DNA of 64,000 nt from Candidatus Heimdallarchaeota archaeon. Lineage in GTDB: Archaea > Asgardarchaeota > Heimdallarchaeia > Hodarchaeales > Hodarchaeaceae. The translations under genes and the position numbers were made by a program. Where the stretch lies: positions 328,769 through 392,768 of the forward strand of contig RDOB01000004.1 in the NCBI GenBank assembly GCA_011364965.1. The letters run 5' to 3'. Position 1 is the stretch's first letter, and the number at the start of each line of letters is the position of its first letter. Below, in pieces: positions 53,128 to 62,807 of this stretch. The notes under the pieces were generated by a model, which saw only the letters and a program-made list of their open reading frames with translations, was not told the DNA's origin and ran no database searches.

Positions 53128-53230
53128 GGGCCCATGGCTTAGCCTGGTTAAAGCGCTCGGCTGATAACCGAGATGGCATTCAGAGTGAATGCCAAGGTAG
53201 AGATCCCCGGTTCAAATCCGGGTGGGCCCA
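53128..53230 (+). tRNA. tRNA-Ile(GAT) with 28-nt non-canonical intron (~43/44; 53173-53200)
   Basis: GGGCCCA/TGGGCCC acceptor; CTCGG-CT-GAT-AA-CCGAG; intron hairpin TGGCATTCA/TGAATGCCA with AGA bulges. Confidence 0.92.
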
Positions 53231-53277
53231 CTTTATTACCATTTTATCATCATTAATAAACTCATTATCACTACTAC

Positions 53278-54642
53278 TTAGGTGATCGATGTCGTTTCTA
53301 TCTTTAAATTCCTATTTTGTAGCAAATTTTTTGATGGATTAGTGATTTGAATAAGAAGAAGATTTAATAACATTATAAATCTTGAATGATCTTTTATGAA
53401 ATTTTCTGTCTTATTATATTGGGCTAACAGACAAATTAGATGGTGAATCGAAAGATGCTTTTGCAATTCTGATATAATAGTGATTTGTTCATTTTTATAC
53501 TCTTCATCTAAGATAATTTTAATTAATTTAACCAACTTTTCGTTCTTCACTAATTTTTGGCAATATTCTTTTCTCCTATTGCACTTTTCTAATTTATTGC
53601 TAATTTCGAGATCTAAATTCTGACCTAAATTACATAATTCATAACAGATAGAATTTTTCTTCAATTTTATGTTTGGAACTTTTTTCAATTCCAAATCAGA
53701 TTTTAATTGGATGGTTTTTCTATCTTTTTCACTATCATATGGGTTTTTATTTAGATTCATCATTTTAAGTTTAATAATGAAGTGTTGAATCCCCTCCTCG
53801 AATGTAATAGTCTCTTCTTTCGATAATAAATAGTTAAATCGTGCATTTTTGAGACTTTTTGCTTCCCAAATTCCCTTATTTCCTCCTTGCTTAGAAAATG
53901 CAATTAGATAGCTTAAGAATTTAAATTTCTGACTTGTTTTATACTCCTCCTTTTCATATAGTTGAGTTAAAGATTTTTCTTCCGATTTTAGATATTTTGA
54001 AACAAGAACAATTCTGGAACCAGAGAAATTAGACTTTGACTCATTAAAATAATAATTCGCTAAAATGAAATTTTCACCCTCTTGAAGAATATAATTTTTT
54101 CCCATTTTCACGAAACGTTGGTTTTGGAAGAATTTTAAGATATCTTCCGCCGATAAACTTTTTAAATTTGGGAGTATTATGTCGAGAATCGCCCTTGATC
54201 TTTCTAATCGTTCTTTTAACTCTCGATAGGAACCTGCGTACAAAAAACACTTCAAGTTTTTCTTTCTACAATCCAACTCAATAGAAAACTCTTCTAGGTT
54301 CTTTAATTGTCTCATTTCTTCTAAGAAAATGGAACTCAAGTTATCAGATTCGGAAATACTAATCCAAAGTGAGTAATCCTCTATATAAACCATTCCCGGT
54401 TCTTTAATATGGAATTTAAGAGAATATATATCCGTTTTCCAGTATTCAAATATGTCTTTGAGTATTAAATAGAGTATAAGAGCTATTGGTAAATAATTCA
54501 CCTTATTCAAAAAAATATTGACTTCTTGATTAAAAAAAATAATTTCTTGAGTAACAAAATCAAGAACTATTATCAGCAAGATCGTTAAAAATCCAATAAG
54601 GCCAAAATTTCTTATTTTCTTCTGTATTTTTATCCTCACCAT
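53278..54642 (-). CDS. Hypothetical protein, two N-terminal TMs plus large soluble domain
   Basis: Long ORF; likely start MVRIK (ATG 54642) just after the stop of the upstream gene. Confidence 0.7.
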   Translation of the reverse strand: MVRIKIQKKIRNFGLIGFLTILLIIVLDFVTQEIIFFNQEVNIFLNKVNYLPIALILYLILKDIFEYWKTDIYSLKFHIKEPGMVYIEDYSLWISISESDNLSSIFLEEMRQLKNLEEFSIELDCRKKNLKCFLYAGSYRELKERLERSRAILDIILPNLKSLSAEDILKFFQNQRFVKMGKNYILQEGENFILANYYFNESKSNFSGSRIVLVSKYLKSEEKSLTQLYEKEEYKTSQKFKFLSYLIAFSKQGGNKGIWEAKSLKNARFNYLLSKEETITFEEGIQHFIIKLKMMNLNKNPYDSEKDRKTIQLKSDLELKKVPNIKLKKNSICYELCNLGQNLDLEISNKLEKCNRRKEYCQKLVKNEKLVKLIKIILDEEYKNEQITIISELQKHLSIHHLICLLAQYNKTENFIKDHSRFIMLLNLLLIQITNPSKNLLQNRNLKIETTSIT

Positions 54643-54655
54643 ATTTTTGAGTAAT

Positions 54656-57600
54656 TTAAAAAAGAGGCGATCTTTTTTTCTTGATTTTTTTAACGATATA
54701 GAATGGAGATCCAACAAGTAGAGAAAGCAATACCGCTGGATATGTCTGGATAATGAATTCCTCTAAATTGTAATTATTTGGCCAATTGATGGTAACTAGG
54801 AACTCTTCGGTTCTAAATACATTTCCAGCCCTATCAATAGCTATGATAGTGATATAGTTCCTATTTTTCTCCAAACTGAAGTTGAAAACATTATATTGCT
54901 TATCGCTTATATGATAGAAGAAGGGAATGTCATTAATTAAGATAGTAAGATTTTCTCCACCTGATGCAGTTTCTGGTTCAATAACATAAGTGTGAAGTCT
55001 TAATACATTATCACCGAAAATTTCATATGAATAATCCACCATTGGTGCTTCAGTATCTATTATTGAGAAAAATTGACTTTGACTTCGAATTTGAAAATCC
55101 GAAAACGGATTAATTGACAAGTATACATTACAAGAGGAATTCCAATTCATTTTTGGAAAGAAGGCCGTAATTGTACTTTCCTGAGGATTAGTTTCAATCT
55201 GTTTGCTAGTATTGTGGCACAACAGAGAATATTGATTATCTAGTTCATAATAAACAGAGTATTCAAAGCTTACAGGACTTTTTACTTCCCAGCTTCCTAT
55301 AATTGAATCATAATAGTTATATTCATTTTCAAAAGGAATTAACTCTTTTATTTCAATTCCATAGATATCTGCTTCCAAATAAATGCGTAATTGAACTCCA
55401 CTCACAATATTAAGGTTTGAAATTGAATATACAAGGTTATTAAATACAATCGTATACAGAGTGGTAATTTCCCTGTAAATAGAGTCATAAATAGTTATAT
55501 TTGAAATTGGTAGTCCAAATTTCTTTAAATTGATATTTACAGTAAAATTGTTAACAGTGGTATTTGAATATACTTCCATTGACAATTTAAACCGTGAAAG
55601 GACTGTTTCGATTTTCATAAATGCTAAAGGACCTGCAAGTTCAAGAATTAAGATATCTGAGGTGTTTGTGGTAGCAAGAAAGCTCCAAAATATGAGATCT
55701 TGGGTAATAAGGGTTGATATTACATAATGATCACGAATTACAGAAACAGAGAGGATTTTCCCTTGGTAAGATGGAATCGATGCAAACCATTCTGATCCAT
55801 TTTCAGGATATAATATCCTGTAATAGATATAAAAGCTGGAGTTGGCATAAATCGATGATCGCTCAATTTCTGTCAAATAAACTATTTCATGATCCTCTAA
55901 AAGGGAATTATTTGAGAGTTCTAGATGGAATTCCTGAAAAATTATGGTTTTTTCATCAATTTTACCTTCAATACCAAAATCAAGCCAATTGTCTGAAGTA
56001 TAATCTGATATCTCAAGACTTAAGTCCAAAATTCCCTCTGAATTAGTAATGCCTACATATATTGGTATATTATTGAACCATAATAAAATAAATACACCTG
56101 GTAGGATTTGATAACTATTCAGATCGATTGTATAATATGTGTATATACGAAAAGTCAAATTGTCTTCTGTGTAAAGAAAATTCGGAAAATTTTCTAATTC
56201 CCAATGAAATGAAGAGTATAAAACCCTTAAATTTAGATTTTCAGTAGCAAATAGATCATTTCCATCATATGCGAAGATATCAAAAGAGTAATTTCCTTCA
56301 AGCAATCCTACAGCTGCTATTGTTAGAATATAATCATTGTTTAGTGTATGTTTAAATGAATAATAACGATCTGTTGTCATCATGACAACATTGATTGAAC
56401 TTGAAAGAACCTTATAATTCTGAAGATATAAACTTAAATTCAGGAAGAGCGGTTGAAATCGGAATATTTCAATCATTTGAGGGCAATTAAACCTGATTTC
56501 TAATTCTTGGGAACTTCCATCATGTATAACAACAAATCCATTTATCACTCCAAATTCCCATGAATTTGTATAATTCACAGTAAGTTTAATGAGTCCAATA
56601 GGAAATTCCTCCGTAATTTCTATACCTGGAAAAATAAAACTTGCATTCACCATAGCTGCAGTAGTTCGAGTCTGAATAAATGATCCATTTTCAAGAAATA
56701 GCGAAATATCACCCCCCAATGGATTCTGTAAATTTCCCCGAACCTCAAGATATTCTCCTATAATTATATCCCTAGAAAATGTCACATCGGAAATATAATT
56801 TGGTACACTTGCCTTAAAACTGACTCTTTCTTGATCAGTTATATCAAGCATGAAAAATTCAACATTTATATATTCATTTACGATATGCGATCGATTTAAG
56901 GTTGTAAATGAATGTGAATTATTTATTACACTTAATTGATCCCAATCAGTAGGAATTGGAAGAATAATAATCCTTTTATCGTTAAAGATACTGTGATTTA
57001 CAACTTCTAAGTCCATTTGTAATAGTAGTTGGGTATCATTCCATTCTTTTATATACCATGAGCAATTGTTCTTACTAATCCTGGTAATGTTTGTTTCTAA
57101 TAGCGTCCTCGCGTTCTGTGCCCATGGAGTGGTTTCGTAAGCAATAAATGTGAAATTAGCAGTGAAAAATTCGATATACAATGTTCCATTGTCACTAATA
57201 TAGGTATTTTCATTAATTTGATAGATAATTGGGATAGTTTTCAGGAGTGTTGTATAATATTGAATGTTATCTATATTTAATTCTAAATAGAAATCTGGGG
57301 TAAAAGTGATCATATAACAAAATACTGTTTCCAAATTATTGAAATTATTATATTTATCCTGTGAAATGTAGGATTCAATCACTTTAGTCAAATTTAGCGA
57401 TATTTTTCTCCAGTTAAATGGCATCGAGTCGTTACAGAAGATATAAAGGGAATTTGATCCTTCGGGTCTGGTAAGATTCGCCTCAAGATGAGCACCGAAA
57501 TCTCCCCCTAGAGAAGACAAAATAAAAAAAATGGAACTCTGATTGAATCGGAATTCTAAAGCTAATGTATGAGGTGAGGTCTGTAAATTCGAGCTGATAA

Positions 57601-58165
57601 TAGGAATCCTGAAGTTAAAGGAAATTAACGTCAAAAATTCCGAAGGAGAGGGAAGGGGAATTTCTCCAAATTTCGTGTTACTTATCCCATATCCTCCATT
57701 TCCTGTATCAGTAAAATTAAGAGTAAAAAAGGTATTATTATCTTCAAACTGAGTTGAAGCATTTACATCGTCATAACTTGGTTCTAATCCATTTTTCCAA
57801 GTATTTAAAATACCATCAGAAGTGATATTTAAATTACTACTTGTAACACTAGATTCAAGTGTGAAATTCATTAGGTCATCGTTTTGAAATACGTATGAGT
57901 CATTTGTTTGCAGATCGTTGATATTTAAGTACTCTTCAATAACACAAGTTGATGATTCCACATTATCTGAAGAGCTTATCTTTGCATCTAATTTACTATT
58001 AAAAATAAGGCTTGATTGAGTCATTAATTGACCTTGTTCAAAGGAAGTAACATAAAAAGGTGTATAACTATCATTAACACAAATGGTTGGCAGAAGAAAT
58101 GAAAGACTTAAGGCTAAAAAAAGAAATGTTCGAAAAATTATCCAAGATCTCATTTTATATACCAA
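54656..58165 (-). CDS. Large (1169 aa) secreted, C-terminally anchored surface glycoprotein with Ig-like repeats
   Basis: Signal peptide, very many NxS/T sequons, DTEAP..AIDRAGN Ig-like motif, C-terminal TM followed by a Lys-rich tail. Confidence 0.8.
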   Translation of the reverse strand: MVYKMRSWIIFRTFLFLALSLSFLLPTICVNDSYTPFYVTSFEQGQLMTQSSLIFNSKLDAKISSSDNVESSTCVIEEYLNINDLQTNDSYVFQNDDLMNFTLESSVTSSNLNITSDGILNTWKNGLEPSYDDVNASTQFEDNNTFFTLNFTDTGNGGYGISNTKFGEIPLPSPSEFLTLISFNFRIPIISSNLQTSPHTLALEFRFNQSSIFFILSSLGGDFGAHLEANLTRPEGSNSLYIFCNDSMPFNWRKISLNLTKVIESYISQDKYNNFNNLETVFCYMITFTPDFYLELNIDNIQYYTTLLKTIPIIYQINENTYISDNGTLYIEFFTANFTFIAYETTPWAQNARTLLETNITRISKNNCSWYIKEWNDTQLLLQMDLEVVNHSIFNDKRIIILPIPTDWDQLSVINNSHSFTTLNRSHIVNEYINVEFFMLDITDQERVSFKASVPNYISDVTFSRDIIIGEYLEVRGNLQNPLGGDISLFLENGSFIQTRTTAAMVNASFIFPGIEITEEFPIGLIKLTVNYTNSWEFGVINGFVVIHDGSSQELEIRFNCPQMIEIFRFQPLFLNLSLYLQNYKVLSSSINVVMMTTDRYYSFKHTLNNDYILTIAAVGLLEGNYSFDIFAYDGNDLFATENLNLRVLYSSFHWELENFPNFLYTEDNLTFRIYTYYTIDLNSYQILPGVFILLWFNNIPIYVGITNSEGILDLSLEISDYTSDNWLDFGIEGKIDEKTIIFQEFHLELSNNSLLEDHEIVYLTEIERSSIYANSSFYIYYRILYPENGSEWFASIPSYQGKILSVSVIRDHYVISTLITQDLIFWSFLATTNTSDILILELAGPLAFMKIETVLSRFKLSMEVYSNTTVNNFTVNINLKKFGLPISNITIYDSIYREITTLYTIVFNNLVYSISNLNIVSGVQLRIYLEADIYGIEIKELIPFENEYNYYDSIIGSWEVKSPVSFEYSVYYELDNQYSLLCHNTSKQIETNPQESTITAFFPKMNWNSSCNVYLSINPFSDFQIRSQSQFFSIIDTEAPMVDYSYEIFGDNVLRLHTYVIEPETASGGENLTILINDIPFFYHISDKQYNVFNFSLEKNRNYITIIAIDRAGNVFRTEEFLVTINWPNNYNLEEFIIQTYPAVLLSLLVGSPFYIVKKIKKKRSPLF

Positions 58166-58244
58166 TCCTTCACCAAAAAGCCTTGGTTATATCCTAAAGT
58201 AGAATATCTTGGGCCTTAATATCCTCCCAAAAATATGATTTTTG

Positions 58245-59741
58245 TTAGAAACTGGTTAAAAAAATGCTCCTTACTCCCCAATATAAGATTACAAATAACA
58301 GAAACTTTATTATTTTAAATGATAAACCAAACTGGAGAATTTCACCTTTTCTTAGTCTTGATAAATTGAAGTTTTTCAATGGAAGGAGAGATAGTGTGAG
58401 TGCAACTAGAAAAAATTCCAATTCAAAAGGAGATATTAAATTTAAATTAAGAGGTTGACGAAAAGAGTAATTTACTGCCATTTCCACAAACAGAAAAATA
58501 GGACTTGCCCCCGCGATGGAAGCTAATGAAATTATTGATAACAATTGAATTACATTTTCTTGTAATGCTATTGCTCGCAATTTAGCCCTCCCTTTATTAA
58601 GTAACTCGTTAGTTTTAGATAAATCTTGGGTGATTTTTAGAGTTTTTTCCCCTGCCTCAACTGGGTCTAGCAATGCATACTTCTCAACGAGATTGAGCAA
58701 ATATATGGTTCTTCGTTTAAAAAGTGTTTCAAGGAGGTCATTTTTCGATTTTTCTTTTCCATCTAATTGAGTTTGCACAAAATCCTTGGTGATCGACAAC
58801 TCTAATTTATTACGATATATTTTCATTGACTGATTCATACTTTTTGCAAATGAGAATCCTCGTGAAAGATACTCAGCTAGCAAAACTAGGAACTCAATCT
58901 CATGAGCATCATATGAGAGCGTATCAACATTATTAGTGCTGAAAAAACCAATTTCACTATCTCCTTGTAAAAAAAGTGATATTATGGTAATAGAGCCTGG
59001 AATCAAAATCCCTAATATGCTACTCATCTTTCCTGAAATTAATAAAAAGCATAAAACAATTGGTGGACTTAAGAATATTAATCCTGATGATAATGAAGTC
59101 CAAATCTCTATTTTTTCAGTTTTTTCAATAATTTTTTCTGCTAGTTTGGCAATAATTAGATTTTTATTTAATAAAGTAATATTTTTTCCATAATCCCATG
59201 TATCTATAATTAATACAAGTGTTTCACTTATTTGTTTTGGCAATAAAATACTAAAATTGGCTTTTAACAGCTCAGGGAGTACATTCCCAAAATGCGCCTC
59301 AAGGAGTGCATTTGAGAAAATATCTGAATAGAATGGATAATTTCCCATTGAAACATATTTCACAGCATTTCTCAGAGATTTTGAAGTTTCTAAGATGATT
59401 AATAATTCATTCATAACAAAATATCCAATAGTTTCCATTTTAAATTGAAATTTATTGAATTTCAAACGAATAAGATAATTTATTCCCCTTAAAGCTAAAA
59501 AAAATAATGAGAGCTGAATTAAACCAAAAATGAAATAAGTTCCTTGAGATATTATCAACTGAAATGCGAAGACTGCTATTGAAAATCCAAAAATAATCTT
59601 TTGCAGCTTTTCAATTCTTTCTTTATTAATTTTATATCCGTTCAGTAAAGGAATGTGGATTTGATGATTTTCCAAGAACTCATAATTTCCTATTATAGAT
59701 TCTGTTAAGTTTGAAAAAAGGAATGTTAAATTCCGGCTCAT
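58245..59741 (-). CDS. Polytopic TadB/TadC (T2SSF/FlaJ)-like platform protein, divergent
   Basis: Two repeats of TM-cytosolic helical domain-TM; LETSKSLRNAVKYV and LAEYLSRGFSFAKSM resemble T2SSF 'G.sl..Al' motifs; TadA-like gene nearby. Confidence 0.55.
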   Translation of the reverse strand: MSRNLTFLFSNLTESIIGNYEFLENHQIHIPLLNGYKINKERIEKLQKIIFGFSIAVFAFQLIISQGTYFIFGLIQLSLFFLALRGINYLIRLKFNKFQFKMETIGYFVMNELLIILETSKSLRNAVKYVSMGNYPFYSDIFSNALLEAHFGNVLPELLKANFSILLPKQISETLVLIIDTWDYGKNITLLNKNLIIAKLAEKIIEKTEKIEIWTSLSSGLIFLSPPIVLCFLLISGKMSSILGILIPGSITIISLFLQGDSEIGFFSTNNVDTLSYDAHEIEFLVLLAEYLSRGFSFAKSMNQSMKIYRNKLELSITKDFVQTQLDGKEKSKNDLLETLFKRRTIYLLNLVEKYALLDPVEAGEKTLKITQDLSKTNELLNKGRAKLRAIALQENVIQLLSIISLASIAGASPIFLFVEMAVNYSFRQPLNLNLISPFELEFFLVALTLSLLPLKNFNLSRLRKGEILQFGLSFKIIKFLLFVILYWGVRSIFLTSF

Positions 59742-59853
59742 TTGTATCTATCCGACGCCTGTAAATGGAATCAGTTTCCGAAAATCTAGCTACAATAAAA
59801 ATAAATAATTAGTATATCTTCTCATAAGTTTCCCTTTCTCATTCCGATTTTTC

Positions 59854-60210
59854 TTGGGTGCTTTTAACTATCAAATGGAATTCATTCTGGGTATTACCTT
59901 GGCAATAATTCAAGCTCAGAAAAATAAAATAACAGTATCCTGTCCTTTATGCGGAGAATCTGAAACAATCTCTTTGGATGAAGTAGAATTAGAGCTTGCT
60001 AGGGAACAACATTCTCTTATCACAAAAGCTCTCTCCCATTCCAAAGCAGGCCATGTGCTTACACTTTATATCGATGGGCAAGGAATTGTACGTCGTAAAT
60101 ATTGCTTTGAGATTGCTGAGAACCACTTCAACGTCTTTCCCAGTTCATTACCTAATAATTTAAGCTCTCTCTTCCAACGAATGATTCAAGATTCCATGAA
60201 ATCTGATTAA
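59854..60210 (+). CDS. Small zinc-binding protein (CxxC..H..H)
   Basis: CPLCG..HSKAGHVLTLYIDGQGIVRR; start uncertain. Confidence 0.7.
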   Translation: MGAFNYQMEFILGITLAIIQAQKNKITVSCPLCGESETISLDEVELELAREQHSLITKALSHSKAGHVLTLYIDGQGIVRRKYCFEIAENHFNVFPSSLPNNLSSLFQRMIQDSMKSD

Positions 60211-60237
60211 TCACATCAAATAAAGTCCTTACTGCTT

Positions 60238-61623
60238 TTGGTAGGCGGTTTTATGATAGAATACTTATATTCAGAGAAAAAAGAATTTCAAGAATATCCT
60301 GTTGAAAAAGAAAGGTATTTCTTTTATGCATACAAGTCTACTATTCTAGAATATCCCAGCAAAACCTTATATAAAGTACAATATGACTCTTATACAAATA
60401 ATCACTTGAAAAGCTTTCCTGAATTTGAAGAAAGTATTAAAAGGGAACTGAAAAGCTATATACTTAGAAAATATGATTATTGCAAATTTGACGAGCTATT
60501 AAGATATTTGTATCAAGTCTCAGATATTGAAACAGGGGTCCCATCTCAATTATTACTACCATTATTCTTCCGAATTCTTAATATGGAAAATATTGGAAAA
60601 TTACTTGCTGATGATCAAATTGATGAGATTTATATTGATTCAAGCCAAAAATCGATATATATAGATCATATGAGGCATGGAAGATGTTATACAGACATTG
60701 TTCTTTCCAGTGAAGAAATTGATTCATTTATACAACGTATAGCCCTTGAGAATGATTTTTCTCTAAATAGATTAAATCCCACCATGAAATGTGAATTTTT
60801 CTCTCAAATTTTTCAAACCAGAGTAACAGTAGATATTCCACCCTTAACCATCAAAGACATTCATATCGATATAAGGAAATTTAGATTTCAGAATTTACGA
60901 ATTATTGATTTGATCAGGAATAACACTATTTTATATGAACAAGCGTTATTTCTTCTATTCTTAATAAGATCCCAAGTGTCTATTACGATTTTGGGACCTC
61001 CAAATTCTGGAAAAACAACCCTACAGAATGCTTTAATGGAATATATACCTGAACACCTTCGTTTATTGTCAATAGAGGATGTGCTGGAAACGCACAGTCT
61101 TCGTGAAGGTAATGCGGTACACTTTCGACTTGGATATGACCCACAAGAAGCCCTAATTCTCTCTAAATCTTTGGAGGTACAAAAAATCCTGCATCGAAGT
61201 CCTGATTTCATTAATCTTGGGGAGTTATCAATGAAAAGTCATTTCAATGCATATTTAAACGTACTTTCAATTGGGGTGCCTTCTATTCAAACTATACATG
61301 GTAAAAATTATAAAAAGTTAATTAAAAGACTCCAAGACATATATAATGTTCCAATTGAATTGATAACATCCTCCATACCTCATATATTTGTTGAATTAGG
61401 AGTGACTTGGATTAATAATCGAAAAAATAGGAGTGTTATTTCAATTGCTGAATTAACAGAGGAAGGAACAATACTTCAAATAACTAATGAGACAATCAAG
61501 GATTTTCTATTTAAATCCGACGATCCTCCTAAGATTCAAACAATTAATCATTTGATCACTCATAAGATTATCACCTTAGATACTATTTTTTCTGAGATTA
61601 CCTACATAGAATCCACCTTATAG
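60238..61623 (+). CDS. TadA/VirB11/FlaI-family secretion ATPase
   Basis: LLADDQIDEI, IDIRKF, GPPNSGKTT, SIEDVLE, PDFINLGE, QTIHG. Confidence 0.88.
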   Translation: MVGGFMIEYLYSEKKEFQEYPVEKERYFFYAYKSTILEYPSKTLYKVQYDSYTNNHLKSFPEFEESIKRELKSYILRKYDYCKFDELLRYLYQVSDIETGVPSQLLLPLFFRILNMENIGKLLADDQIDEIYIDSSQKSIYIDHMRHGRCYTDIVLSSEEIDSFIQRIALENDFSLNRLNPTMKCEFFSQIFQTRVTVDIPPLTIKDIHIDIRKFRFQNLRIIDLIRNNTILYEQALFLLFLIRSQVSITILGPPNSGKTTLQNALMEYIPEHLRLLSIEDVLETHSLREGNAVHFRLGYDPQEALILSKSLEVQKILHRSPDFINLGELSMKSHFNAYLNVLSIGVPSIQTIHGKNYKKLIKRLQDIYNVPIELITSSIPHIFVELGVTWINNRKNRSVISIAELTEEGTILQITNETIKDFLFKSDDPPKIQTINHLITHKIITLDTIFSEITYIESTL

Positions 61624-61687
61624 AACGATAAATTCTCCTATTCAAGAAATTTAGGAGTTTAAAATCTATAGTGGGAATTTAGCTTGG

Positions 61688-62209
61688 ATGTACCAAATGA
61701 GTTTAAAGGAAAGTCGAATCTTTGATTTCATCGAAATTAATCCTTCAATCTTTCAAGATGTAATAATTCAAATATTAGAAGACATAAGATCTTTTATACA
61801 CAAAATTTTTCCAGTCACATTAACTCTGGCCATCTTTATGGTAAATCTATCATTTATAATAGGAGCCATTCTTTATTTATTGGATTATGACGAACTAAAT
61901 GGGAAAAAAATGTTATTTAGATCCGCAATACTCTCCATTCTTCTATTTTTTGTTTTTAATGTGTATACTTTTACTGAATTAGAAGAACCATTTCAGGGTT
62001 TTGAGAAATTTGCTTCTTTTATAACTGCTTATCTTCTATTCATTTTTGCTGCTCTTTCTTTAATATTATTTCTTGGAAATCTAGGTTATTATTTACTAAG
62101 TCCAAATCCTTCCCAAAAAAGAATTCTGAAGAAAACTCTTTTTTGTCTCTTATGTACTTTTATTCCATTAGGTCTACAATTTCCTGCGATGCCTAAATGG
62201 GTGATTTAA
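61688..62209 (+). CDS. 4-TM protein resembling two tandem TrbC/VirB2-type pilin hairpins
   Basis: Two TM-basic loop-TM units (IIGAILYLL..NGKKML; LGYYLL..QKRILKK). Confidence 0.45.
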   Translation: MYQMSLKESRIFDFIEINPSIFQDVIIQILEDIRSFIHKIFPVTLTLAIFMVNLSFIIGAILYLLDYDELNGKKMLFRSAILSILLFFVFNVYTFTELEEPFQGFEKFASFITAYLLFIFAALSLILFLGNLGYYLLSPNPSQKRILKKTLFCLLCTFIPLGLQFPAMPKWVI

Positions 62210-62210
62210 A

Positions 62211-62396
62211 GTGATTTTGGTAGAACAAATAAACATTTTTAGTTATTTAATAGATCTGTTTTTGTCTATTGAGCTTGGAGCACTTTTAATTACTGTTGGA
62301 ACTATAATCTATTCCCCTACTGGAAATAGAATAGGCAAGTATCTCGTGATTATTGGTTTTTTCATATTTGGTATCAATGCGTTAAAAATAATATGA
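62211..62396 (+). CDS. 61-aa 2-TM protein, VirB2/CedA1-like pilin candidate
   Basis: VGTIIY..GNRIGKYLVIIG helical hairpin; starts 2 nt after the upstream stop. Confidence 0.45.
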   Translation: MILVEQINIFSYLIDLFLSIELGALLITVGTIIYSPTGNRIGKYLVIIGFFIFGINALKII

Positions 62397-62807
62397 TTGT
62401 TTGGACTGATAAAGTCGGTTGCTTCTTCATTAGGAAATAAATTTCTGCGTGAAATTGAGATTTCTTACATAAAATTTATTATTTCATAACTTATTAGTGT
62501 TTAAAAATGAAAATCATCAAACATTAAGATATCCCAATAAATCTCGTCATTTGAAAGAGATTCGGATGATTTTAGTAGAAAAGAAAGATAAATTTGGACT
62601 GAAAATAGTTATGGAGAATAAAAGGAATAGCAGAATCAAGATAAGGAATTTCACTAAATACCTCTAATAAATCTTTAAACAATTTTGTGTTTCGCGTTAA
62701 ACAAGCAAATCTGACCTTCCTAATCTACTCGTTTCCTGAAAAGCTAATTATCACTATAAGTTGTCTTTAATATGCTTTAGCTGATAGTGTTGCTGGGAGA
62801 AAAGCTA

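Follow-up and report, generated by a model that had tools for sequence, protein, structure and literature searches.

A seven-gene cluster at positions 53,278-62,396 of the stretch of DNA analysed here probably codes for the machinery that assembles a type IV filament (T4F), belonging to a divergent Tad/Epd-like system specific to Asgard archaea, with a Flp-like pilin encoded about 10 kb away. The stretch, hereafter the window, comprises 64,000 nucleotides (nt) of a Candidatus Heimdallarchaeota archaeon belonging to the Hodarchaeales (G000:C12:328769-392768, where G000 is the organism's own genome, an assembly of 2.97 Mb that is 87% complete). The assignment of the ATPase and the platform protein to their families, the fold class of the giant surface protein p1169, the synteny of the cluster and the co-occurrence of pilin and machine could all be demonstrated. 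An initial annotation had read the cluster as a surface machine composed of a secretion ATPase, a T2SSF-like platform, an anchored glycoprotein and hairpin membrane proteins. This part stands, and the machine is conserved; its reading as a hybrid without a class III pilin does not. The seven open reading frames (ORFs) it had proposed are all present where it had placed them, and the spacer between the two divergent operons, estimated there at ~110 nt, measures 112 nt:

53278-54717, minus strand: p479, 479 amino acids (aa), two N-terminal transmembrane (TM) segments and a C-terminal domain of ~380 aa
54656-58165, minus strand: p1169, 1169 aa, giant surface glycoprotein
58245-59741, minus strand: p498, 498 aa, fused divergent T2SSF-type platform
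59742-59853, no strand: divergent intergenic region, 112 nt, presumed to hold two promoters
59854-60210, plus strand: p118, 118 aa, small soluble protein with a probable Zn site
60238-61623, plus strand: motor ATPase, 461 aa, T2SSE superfamily, archaeal GspE2/FlaI/TadA-like
61688-62209, plus strand: p173, 173 aa, four TM helices forming two helical hairpins
62211-62396, plus strand: p61, 61 aa, 2-TM hairpin, starting 1 nt after the p173 stop

Searches of the eight ORFs of the region against Pfam and NCBIfam recognised the ATPase alone. No pilin, peptidase, VirB4, relaxase or integrase was detected among them, in agreement with the initial annotation, which had noted that a class III pilin, a prepilin peptidase, VirB4, a relaxase and an integrase are absent from inside the locus.

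Conservation of the cluster, its motor and its platform

In nine genus genomes for which the full 20-kb region was compared, the seven genes keep their order and their housekeeping neighbours on both sides. The ATPase and p173 genes occupy this position in 19 of the 21 other genomes belonging to the genus. Within the genus, p1169 (29-37% identity), p479 (22-31%) and p498 (34-40%) are far more diverged than the products of neighbouring genes, with RpoA' being ~90% and those of the upstream housekeeping genes 55-83% identical. The conserved order combined with this rapid divergence identifies the cluster as a real, selected and fast-evolving surface module. Co-occurrence in relatives had been named in the initial annotation as a check on the proposal; as the genes are syntenic in nine genomes, the arrangement is not due to chance.

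A further genus genome (G008) carries a rearranged copy of the locus (L029, G008:C18:65300-85299). In this copy an insertion of ~7 kb separates the ATPase gene from a truncated p173 gene that is also split. The p1169 homologue now follows p61, and the genes for p173, p61 and the p1169 homologue all lie downstream of the insertion on the same strand.

The ATPase matched Pfam T2SSE well above threshold (2.2e-13, 50.1 bits, cut-off 24.9). The NCBIfam models for VirB11, FlaI, BasE, TrbB and TadA all matched as well, each below its cut-off. The best sequence match in the PDB was the GspE of Archaeoglobus fulgidus (2OAP, 2e-21), followed by FlaI (5e-14), CpaF/TadA (3e-8) and VirB11 (1e-5). The matches to 2OAP (A. 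fulgidus GspE2) and 4II7 (S. acidocaldarius FlaI) cover residues ~100-420, and the Walker A motif, the Asp box, the Walker B Glu and the His box that these archaeal ATPases have in common are all retained. On the basis of its sequence, the ATPase is a member of the archaeal GspE/FlaI/TadA group, as expected from its earlier description as a secretion-superfamily ATPase. Its score against the FlaI equivalog is far below the cut-off of that model (67 bits, cut-off 550), and no archaellin, ArlH, ArlX or KaiC-like gene is present in the cluster.

Orthologues of this ATPase are 52-59% identical in the 19 genus genomes mentioned above and 27-44% identical in other families of the class. They are distinct from a second, canonical ATPase, encoded on contig C13 of the same genome, to which the identity is ~28%. 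The Walker B motif is followed by GE(L/I)(S/Q) across the whole clade of the window ATPase and by GEVR in the canonical C13 enzyme.

The platform protein p498 is built as a duplicated unit, each copy comprising a cytoplasmic helical domain and the TM helices that come after it. It has no match in Pfam, and a search of 41 genomes with Pfam T2SSF detected the canonical genes alone and missed the p498 family. In other families, the ATPase gene is followed by genes for two membrane proteins of ~270 and ~210 aa. Using hhalign, the N-terminal half of p498 was aligned to the ~270-aa protein (96.9%, E 1.6e-10) and the C-terminal half to the ~210-aa protein (95.6%, E 1.2e-8), showing p498 to be a TadB-TadC-like fusion. 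The platform is encoded by two genes in families f3, f4, f8, f17, f20 and f23, and is fused in this genus.

The relationship of this family to T2SSF was established by several routes. An alignment of 51 canonical Heimdallarchaeia T2SSF proteins matched the 270-aa family over 231 collinear columns (85%, E 6e-6) and the combined p498 alignment with slightly lower significance (75%, E 2.5e-5); compared by hhalign with canonical T2SSF proteins taken singly, the p498 family had no match. From 1.84 billion representatives, a search with the family profile retrieved 209 members of the platform family in fused and split forms, and among 58 remote members, 18 carry Pfam T2SSF (best 2.5e-21) and two Spore_III_AB. 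The top match of the p498 model in a Foldseek search of the PDB was a model of PilC, and it was weak (E 0.13). A homologue search with the p498 and p1169 families retrieved solely close Hodarchaeota relatives without Pfam labels. Since profile, transitive and fold evidence agree, p498 is a fused and very divergent platform of the T2SSF type (TadB/TadC, FlaJ/PilC-like), and the earlier view of it as a T2SSF-like polytopic protein was correct in spite of the negative Pfam result.

The Flp-like pilin

In the Heimdallarchaeia families f3 and f4 (loci L037-L039, L042 and L043), a gene for a prepilin of 60-70 aa adjoins the orthologous ATPase and platform genes. These prepilins have a K/R-rich leader, the motif G/A|SP(L/I)(L/I/V)EE and a single hydrophobic helix. 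The combination of ATPase, two platform genes and Flp-like pilin, located beside a TFB-like gene, is also found in three further Asgard families, f8, f17 and f23 (L091, L092 and L095).

Inspection of the genome beyond the window revealed a Flp-like pilin gene on the minus strand at G000:C12:400043-400243 (= L048:8044-8244). It is located 9.7 kb downstream of the ATPase, past the RNA polymerase operon and 7.3 kb beyond the end of the window, and is divergent from an operon of Rab-like GTPase, KaiC and roadblock genes. The predicted product, MILSFSKRTIKLLFQKRRG|SPLVEEGILIG..., is a precursor of 66 aa with a 19-residue leader ending in KRRG, and its mature part of ~47 aa comprises a hydrophobic helix and a short tail.

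In 13 other genus genomes the pilin gene is found on the contig of the ATPase, at a distance of 9.6-16 kb. Five genomes (G025, G026, G030, G031 and G035) are without an orthologue of the ATPase, the best hits (E 1e-21 to 1e-24) being to the canonical paralogue only. The pilin is missing from the same five (E > 1e-4), canonical T2SSF genes are present in all of them, and searching G025, G026 and G030 with the platform profile gave nothing. Across the 41 genomes, those encoding the divergent ATPase also carry the pilin, bar a few incomplete assemblies. The pilin follows the window-type ATPase phyletically and not the canonical second pilus locus, and the product of G000:C12:400043-400243 is likely to be the filament subunit of the machine in the window.

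From the absence of a class III pilin in the locus, the initial annotation had concluded that the machine is a hybrid using VirB2/CedA1-like pilins; it had also pointed out that class III pilins for this ATPase encoded elsewhere, combined with a lack of the VirB2 fold in the small proteins, would speak against such a hybrid. A Flp-like prepilin of this class is indeed encoded outside the locus, 9.7 kb downstream, adjoins the machine in other families and co-occurs with the ATPase. Because a class III prepilin accompanies the orthologous ATPase and platform, the inference of a hybrid fails.

Alternatively, the Flp-like pilin could be assembled by the canonical type IV pilus (T4P) locus on contig C13, or stand alone, leaving the machine in the window with another substrate. 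The genomic position of the pilin gene in this genus, 10 kb away, divergent from the GTPase-KaiC-roadblock operon and with the RNA polymerase operon in between, would be consistent with this, as would the finding that two genomes (G007 and G015) carry the pilin without a detected ATPase orthologue. However, in at least six other families the pilin gene directly adjoins those for the ATPase and the platform, genomes with the canonical system only are without the pilin, and four class III pilin-like genes already belong to the C13 locus itself (308, 393, 165 and 237 aa). We therefore regard this alternative as very improbable. The canonical locus (G000:C13:3193-10969, L049) further encodes an ATPase of 506 aa and two Pfam-positive T2SSF proteins (307 and 320 aa).

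A candidate class III signal peptidase of 275 aa is encoded at G000:C13:48078-48905, ~40 kb from the canonical locus. It matches Arc_PepC_II (34.1 bits, cut-off 29.9) and, weakly, Peptidase_A24 (4e-4).

Outside the window, the Flp profile also gave weak matches at G000:C12:158258-158383 and G000:C12:178064-178192, corresponding to the N-termini of ORFs of 303 and 1032 aa, and it weakly matches many ORFs of ~950-1085 aa across the genus. These may encode large proteins with class III-like signal peptides, of a giant pilin-like or bindosome-like kind.

The giant glycoprotein and the accessory proteins

The largest product of the cluster, p1169, has a Sec-type signal peptide, a C-terminal TM anchor and a basic tail, and contains 36 N-x-S/T sequons as compared with 18 +/- 3.7 in shuffled sequences. 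The signal peptide, the TM helix and the doubled sequon count bear out its earlier description as an anchored glycoprotein. An AlphaFold2 model (mean pLDDT 77.5) is all-beta from residue 73 to 1124, with the TM helix at 1135-1163. In it, a signal helix and a disordered linker are followed by a larger, jelly-roll-like N-terminal beta domain, about ten beta-sandwich domains and the TM helix. Sequence searches of the PDB gave no match; Foldseek retrieved alpha-2-macroglobulin, complement C5, and titin and contactin arrays (E 1e-14 to 1e-11).

The protein is encoded by a single gene in the genome and is homologous to the ~960-aa proteins with a signal peptide and a TM helix that other families encode at their loci (hhalign 99.3%, E 2.5e-20; HMMER 2e-9). 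A 976-aa protein of similar architecture is encoded first in the operon of family f20, and another such protein flanks a fused platform in family f19. p1169 is a core, surface-exposed and conserved partner of the machine. Spanning the envelope, it would most likely serve the filament as a stalk, a support or an adhesin.

An alternative to a long adhesive pilus was also considered for the ATPase and the platform. A role of archaeal T4F machines as secretion or display devices has been proposed (PMC13705601). The machine could form only a short pseudopilus or a bindosome- or T2SS-like device that places or holds p1169 or other envelope proteins. Proteins of the p1169 type are the most constant neighbours of the platform, and in some Asgard families a fused platform lies beside a large protein with signal peptide and TM helix, with no ATPase gene within 10 kb (L097). 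Furthermore, BasE, the bindosome ATPase, is among the NCBIfam matches of the motor. However, p1169 carries a Sec-type signal and a C-terminal anchor and no class III signal, and therefore needs no T4F machine for its export. The pilin that co-occurs with the machine is, moreover, of the Flp/Epd type. In known systems, pilins of this type form true pili. A pseudopilus or display device consequently appears unlikely, and a Tad/Epd-like filament remains our preferred interpretation.

The remaining four proteins, p479, p118, p173 and p61, are without homologous counterparts at the corresponding loci in other families. For p479, which matches the previous description of a 2-TM protein with a large soluble domain, orthologues were found in nine genus loci (22-31% identity). 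Their alignment shows invariant C358, C362, C379 and C429 and a nearly invariant Met26, suggesting that the true start is probably near position 54642. The protein has no match in Pfam, NCBIfam or PDB sequences, and is an accessory membrane protein known in this genus alone.

Conservation of p118 is higher (44-61% identity across the genus), with a CPxCG knuckle and invariant C30, C33, H62, H67 and C84. The only Pfam matches were weak ones to Zn ribbons and a PDB sequence search gave none. The pattern of Cys and His residues makes a Zn site probable, as had been predicted. The predicted complex of the ATPase and p118 scored 0.00 and was modelled without controls, a result that speaks neither for nor against binding.

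Both small membrane proteins encoded downstream of the ATPase have the topology initially assigned to them, with two hairpins in p173 and one in p61. The hairpins of p173 have short basic loops and the motifs GxIxYLLDYxEENGK and GNLGxYL...KxLKK. No Pfam family was matched, and outside the genus weak partial matches alone were obtained. A TadV/CpaA-like prepilin peptidase was considered for p173 and rejected, as there is no conserved pair of Asp residues. The first hairpin was aligned by hhalign to a family of Asgard hairpin proteins of ~95 aa (94.6%, E 7e-8), and by this criterion the N-terminal hairpin of p173 derives from that family. The loop of p61 reads G..IIYxPTGxRIGKY and its orthologues are present in 10 genus loci. 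The idea that p61 is a repeat of the p173 hairpin is unsupported, since comparison of p61 with p173 and with the ~95-aa family gave no significant match.

The ~95-aa family is Asgard-specific, 58-80% identical across Heimdallarchaeia, and carries no annotation beyond a small number of labels that are generic or automated. Its motif is GAI(K/Q)WATGWDERxGKKT. Members also occur in genomes lacking the machine (G025 and G035), and the usual neighbours are herA-mre11, or a putative nuclease and an unknown gene. A member adjoins the same kind of locus as that in the window in the distant Asgard family f20 (L096), so a functional tie to the machine is possible. The best Pfam matches of the family were all sub-threshold and comprised DUF4134 (0.002-0.008), DUF308, DUF6112 and, more weakly, Maff2 (overall E 0.002-0.4). 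DUF4134, DUF6112 and Maff2 are presumably small membrane proteins of conjugative elements.

In several Heimdallarchaeia, exemplified by family f4 (L051:5979-9517, L055, L056 and L059), the ~95-aa hairpin gene is located directly upstream of herA-mre11. A paralogue sits between a putative nuclease gene and a gene for a 434-aa unknown protein.

These hairpin proteins are the basis for the view that the locus is a domesticated hybrid. Its ATPase and platform, both of the T4P type, would then assemble VirB2/CedA1/TedC-like hairpin pilins, namely p173 and p61, for adhesion or DNA exchange. Both proteins are helical hairpins with basic loops encoded right after the ATPase, the first hairpin of p173 is related to a family whose sub-threshold matches include DUF4134, DUF6112 and Maff2, and a member of that family lies beside the f20 locus. 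In addition, archaeal VirB2-like pilins are reportedly recognisable by structure alone. However, the DUF4134 matches lose weight as 9 of 14 control genomes also match at E <= 1, and the ~95-aa family is conserved in genomes without the system, usually by herA-mre11 or unrelated genes. No Pfam pilin family was matched by p173 or p61, and p61 does not significantly resemble either p173 or the ~95-aa family. A tblastn search of plasmids with p173 and the ~95-aa hairpin protein gave no match. No VirB4-like ATPase was found in the genome, at 87% completeness, with PF03135 giving no match and PF12846 (AAA_10) a sub-threshold one only.

Furthermore, the loci of other families retain the ATPase, the platform, the large protein and the pilin, but the hairpin genes were not detected there. 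Throughout the phylum, this genus included, the ATPase and the platform come with a Flp-like pilin of class III. A VirB2 identity of p173 and p61 is, judging by these comparisons, unlikely, and we consider the hybrid as a whole quite improbable. We take p173 and p61 to be accessory membrane subunits of the Tad/Epd-like machine at the level of the genus.

Relation to known systems and possible function

The closest known systems are Epd, the T4F 'system 1' (EpdJ/K/L of Methanococcus maripaludis), and its bacterial derivative Tad/Flp (TadA/CpaF, TadB, TadC and Flp). The architecture of 'system 1'/Epd comprises an ATPase, two platform genes and a pilin without a globular domain, the latter being a hallmark of Epd/Tad (PMC13705601). 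The Asgard system shares a secretion-superfamily ATPase without the GspE-type Zn domain, with CpaF among its PDB matches, and a platform of two T2SSF-type units that are encoded by two genes in most Asgard relatives. The pilins agree as well, being class III proteins of very small size that have a basic leader and a cleavage site after G/A, bear acidic residues close to the N-terminus of the mature form and lack a globular domain.

Several features set it apart from Epd/Tad. In place of two platform genes, this genus has the single 498-aa p498, too divergent for Pfam T2SSF, and the pilin gene is displaced by 10 kb. The locus is without a dedicated peptidase, minor pilin, TadZ or secretin, and none of the eight ORFs matched a peptidase or a minor pilin. 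A giant Sec-dependent beta-sandwich glycoprotein is a constant partner, and this genus adds p479, p118, p173 and p61. Finally, a TFB-like gene lies beside the ATPase in most other Asgard loci examined.

This gene encodes a protein of ~325-352 aa with a Zn ribbon and a cyclin repeat and, in six of the Asgard families examined, is located no more than ~2 kb or so from the ATPase gene of the T4F locus, at the following positions:

L039:8176-9234
L042:8120-9160
L091:14513-15523
L092:14586-15563
L095:13481-14482
L096:8265-9281

The protein appears to be a transcription factor paralogue dedicated to the pilus operon; its gene is not part of the locus in the window. The possibility that p118 is a truncated homologue of the TFB-like protein preceding the ATPase elsewhere was rejected (hhalign 0.6%).

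Conjugative type IV secretion systems (T4SS) and Ced and Ted, which import DNA in archaea, combine VirB2-like hairpin pilins with VirB4/HerA-like ATPases. The locus resembles them in having two-helix hairpin membrane proteins encoded beside an ATPase of the superfamily to which VirB11 is related. It differs from them in its T2SSF-like polytopic protein and in the presence of a class III pilin. VirB4/CedB, VirB6/CedA, a coupling protein and a relaxase were not detected, nor was any significant sequence link of the hairpins to VirB2 families.

Based on these comparisons, we suggest the following mode of action. The class III signal peptidase encoded on contig C13 would remove the 19-residue leader of the Flp-like prepilin at the predicted cleavage site G|S. 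The hexameric ATPase would dock on the cytoplasmic domains of p498, and the two would extract the ~47-residue pilin, the presumed substrate of the machine, from the membrane and polymerise it into a thin Tad/Epd-like filament. Following Sec export and anchoring through its C-terminal helix, p1169 would accompany the filament through or above the envelope. In relatives, the TFB paralogue probably controls transcription of the pilus operon; in this genus the gene for the non-homologous p118 occupies the position of the TFB-like gene. The machine is likely to serve in adhesion or in contacts with partner cells.

According to a census of archaeal T4F published in 2026, ordered loci are rare and scattered in Asgard archaea (PMC13705601), and no paper found in our literature searches describes the present module. 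It is an Asgard-wide variant of the Tad/Epd-type filament, in which an ATPase, a divergent platform, a large anchored surface protein and a Flp-like pilin form a compact module. The module recurs across Asgard families, and its platform is present in 88 of the 151 Asgard genomes sampled, although Pfam T2SSF is blind to it. It thereby adds an Asgard branch to the Epd/Tad pilus lineage, together with a family of giant beta-sandwich glycoproteins that evolves much faster than its housekeeping neighbours.

For the Hodarchaeales, whose surface filaments are still unassigned, the module is a testable candidate for adhesion or partner contact. The protrusions of cultured Hodarchaeales bear helical surface filaments, 15-25 nm thick and with tip knobs of ~50 nm, which are concentrated at contacts with partner methanogens (bioRxiv 10.1101/2025.02.26.640444). 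As filaments of 15-25 nm are too thick for a bare Flp pilus, a Flp-like core decorated or sheathed by p1169 and/or the hairpin proteins was considered. That the module builds these thick, knobbed filaments is a doubtful proposition at present. If true, it would represent a T4F-derived organelle of new architecture, through which the archaea most closely related to eukaryotes make syntrophic contacts between cells.

The cluster is flanked as the initial annotation had described it, by a tRNA-Ile and an RNA polymerase gene:

53128-53231: intron-containing tRNA-Ile(GAT), found with Rfam and by ARAGORN with introns allowed
from 62787: RNA polymerase subunit A' (rpoA')

ARAGORN at its default settings did not detect the tRNA. 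An ORF of 56 aa between p61 and rpoA' (62497-62667) has neither a family match nor a counterpart in the loci of relatives and is therefore probably not a gene. The gap of ~390 nt ahead of rpoA' may contain the promoter of the RNA polymerase operon.

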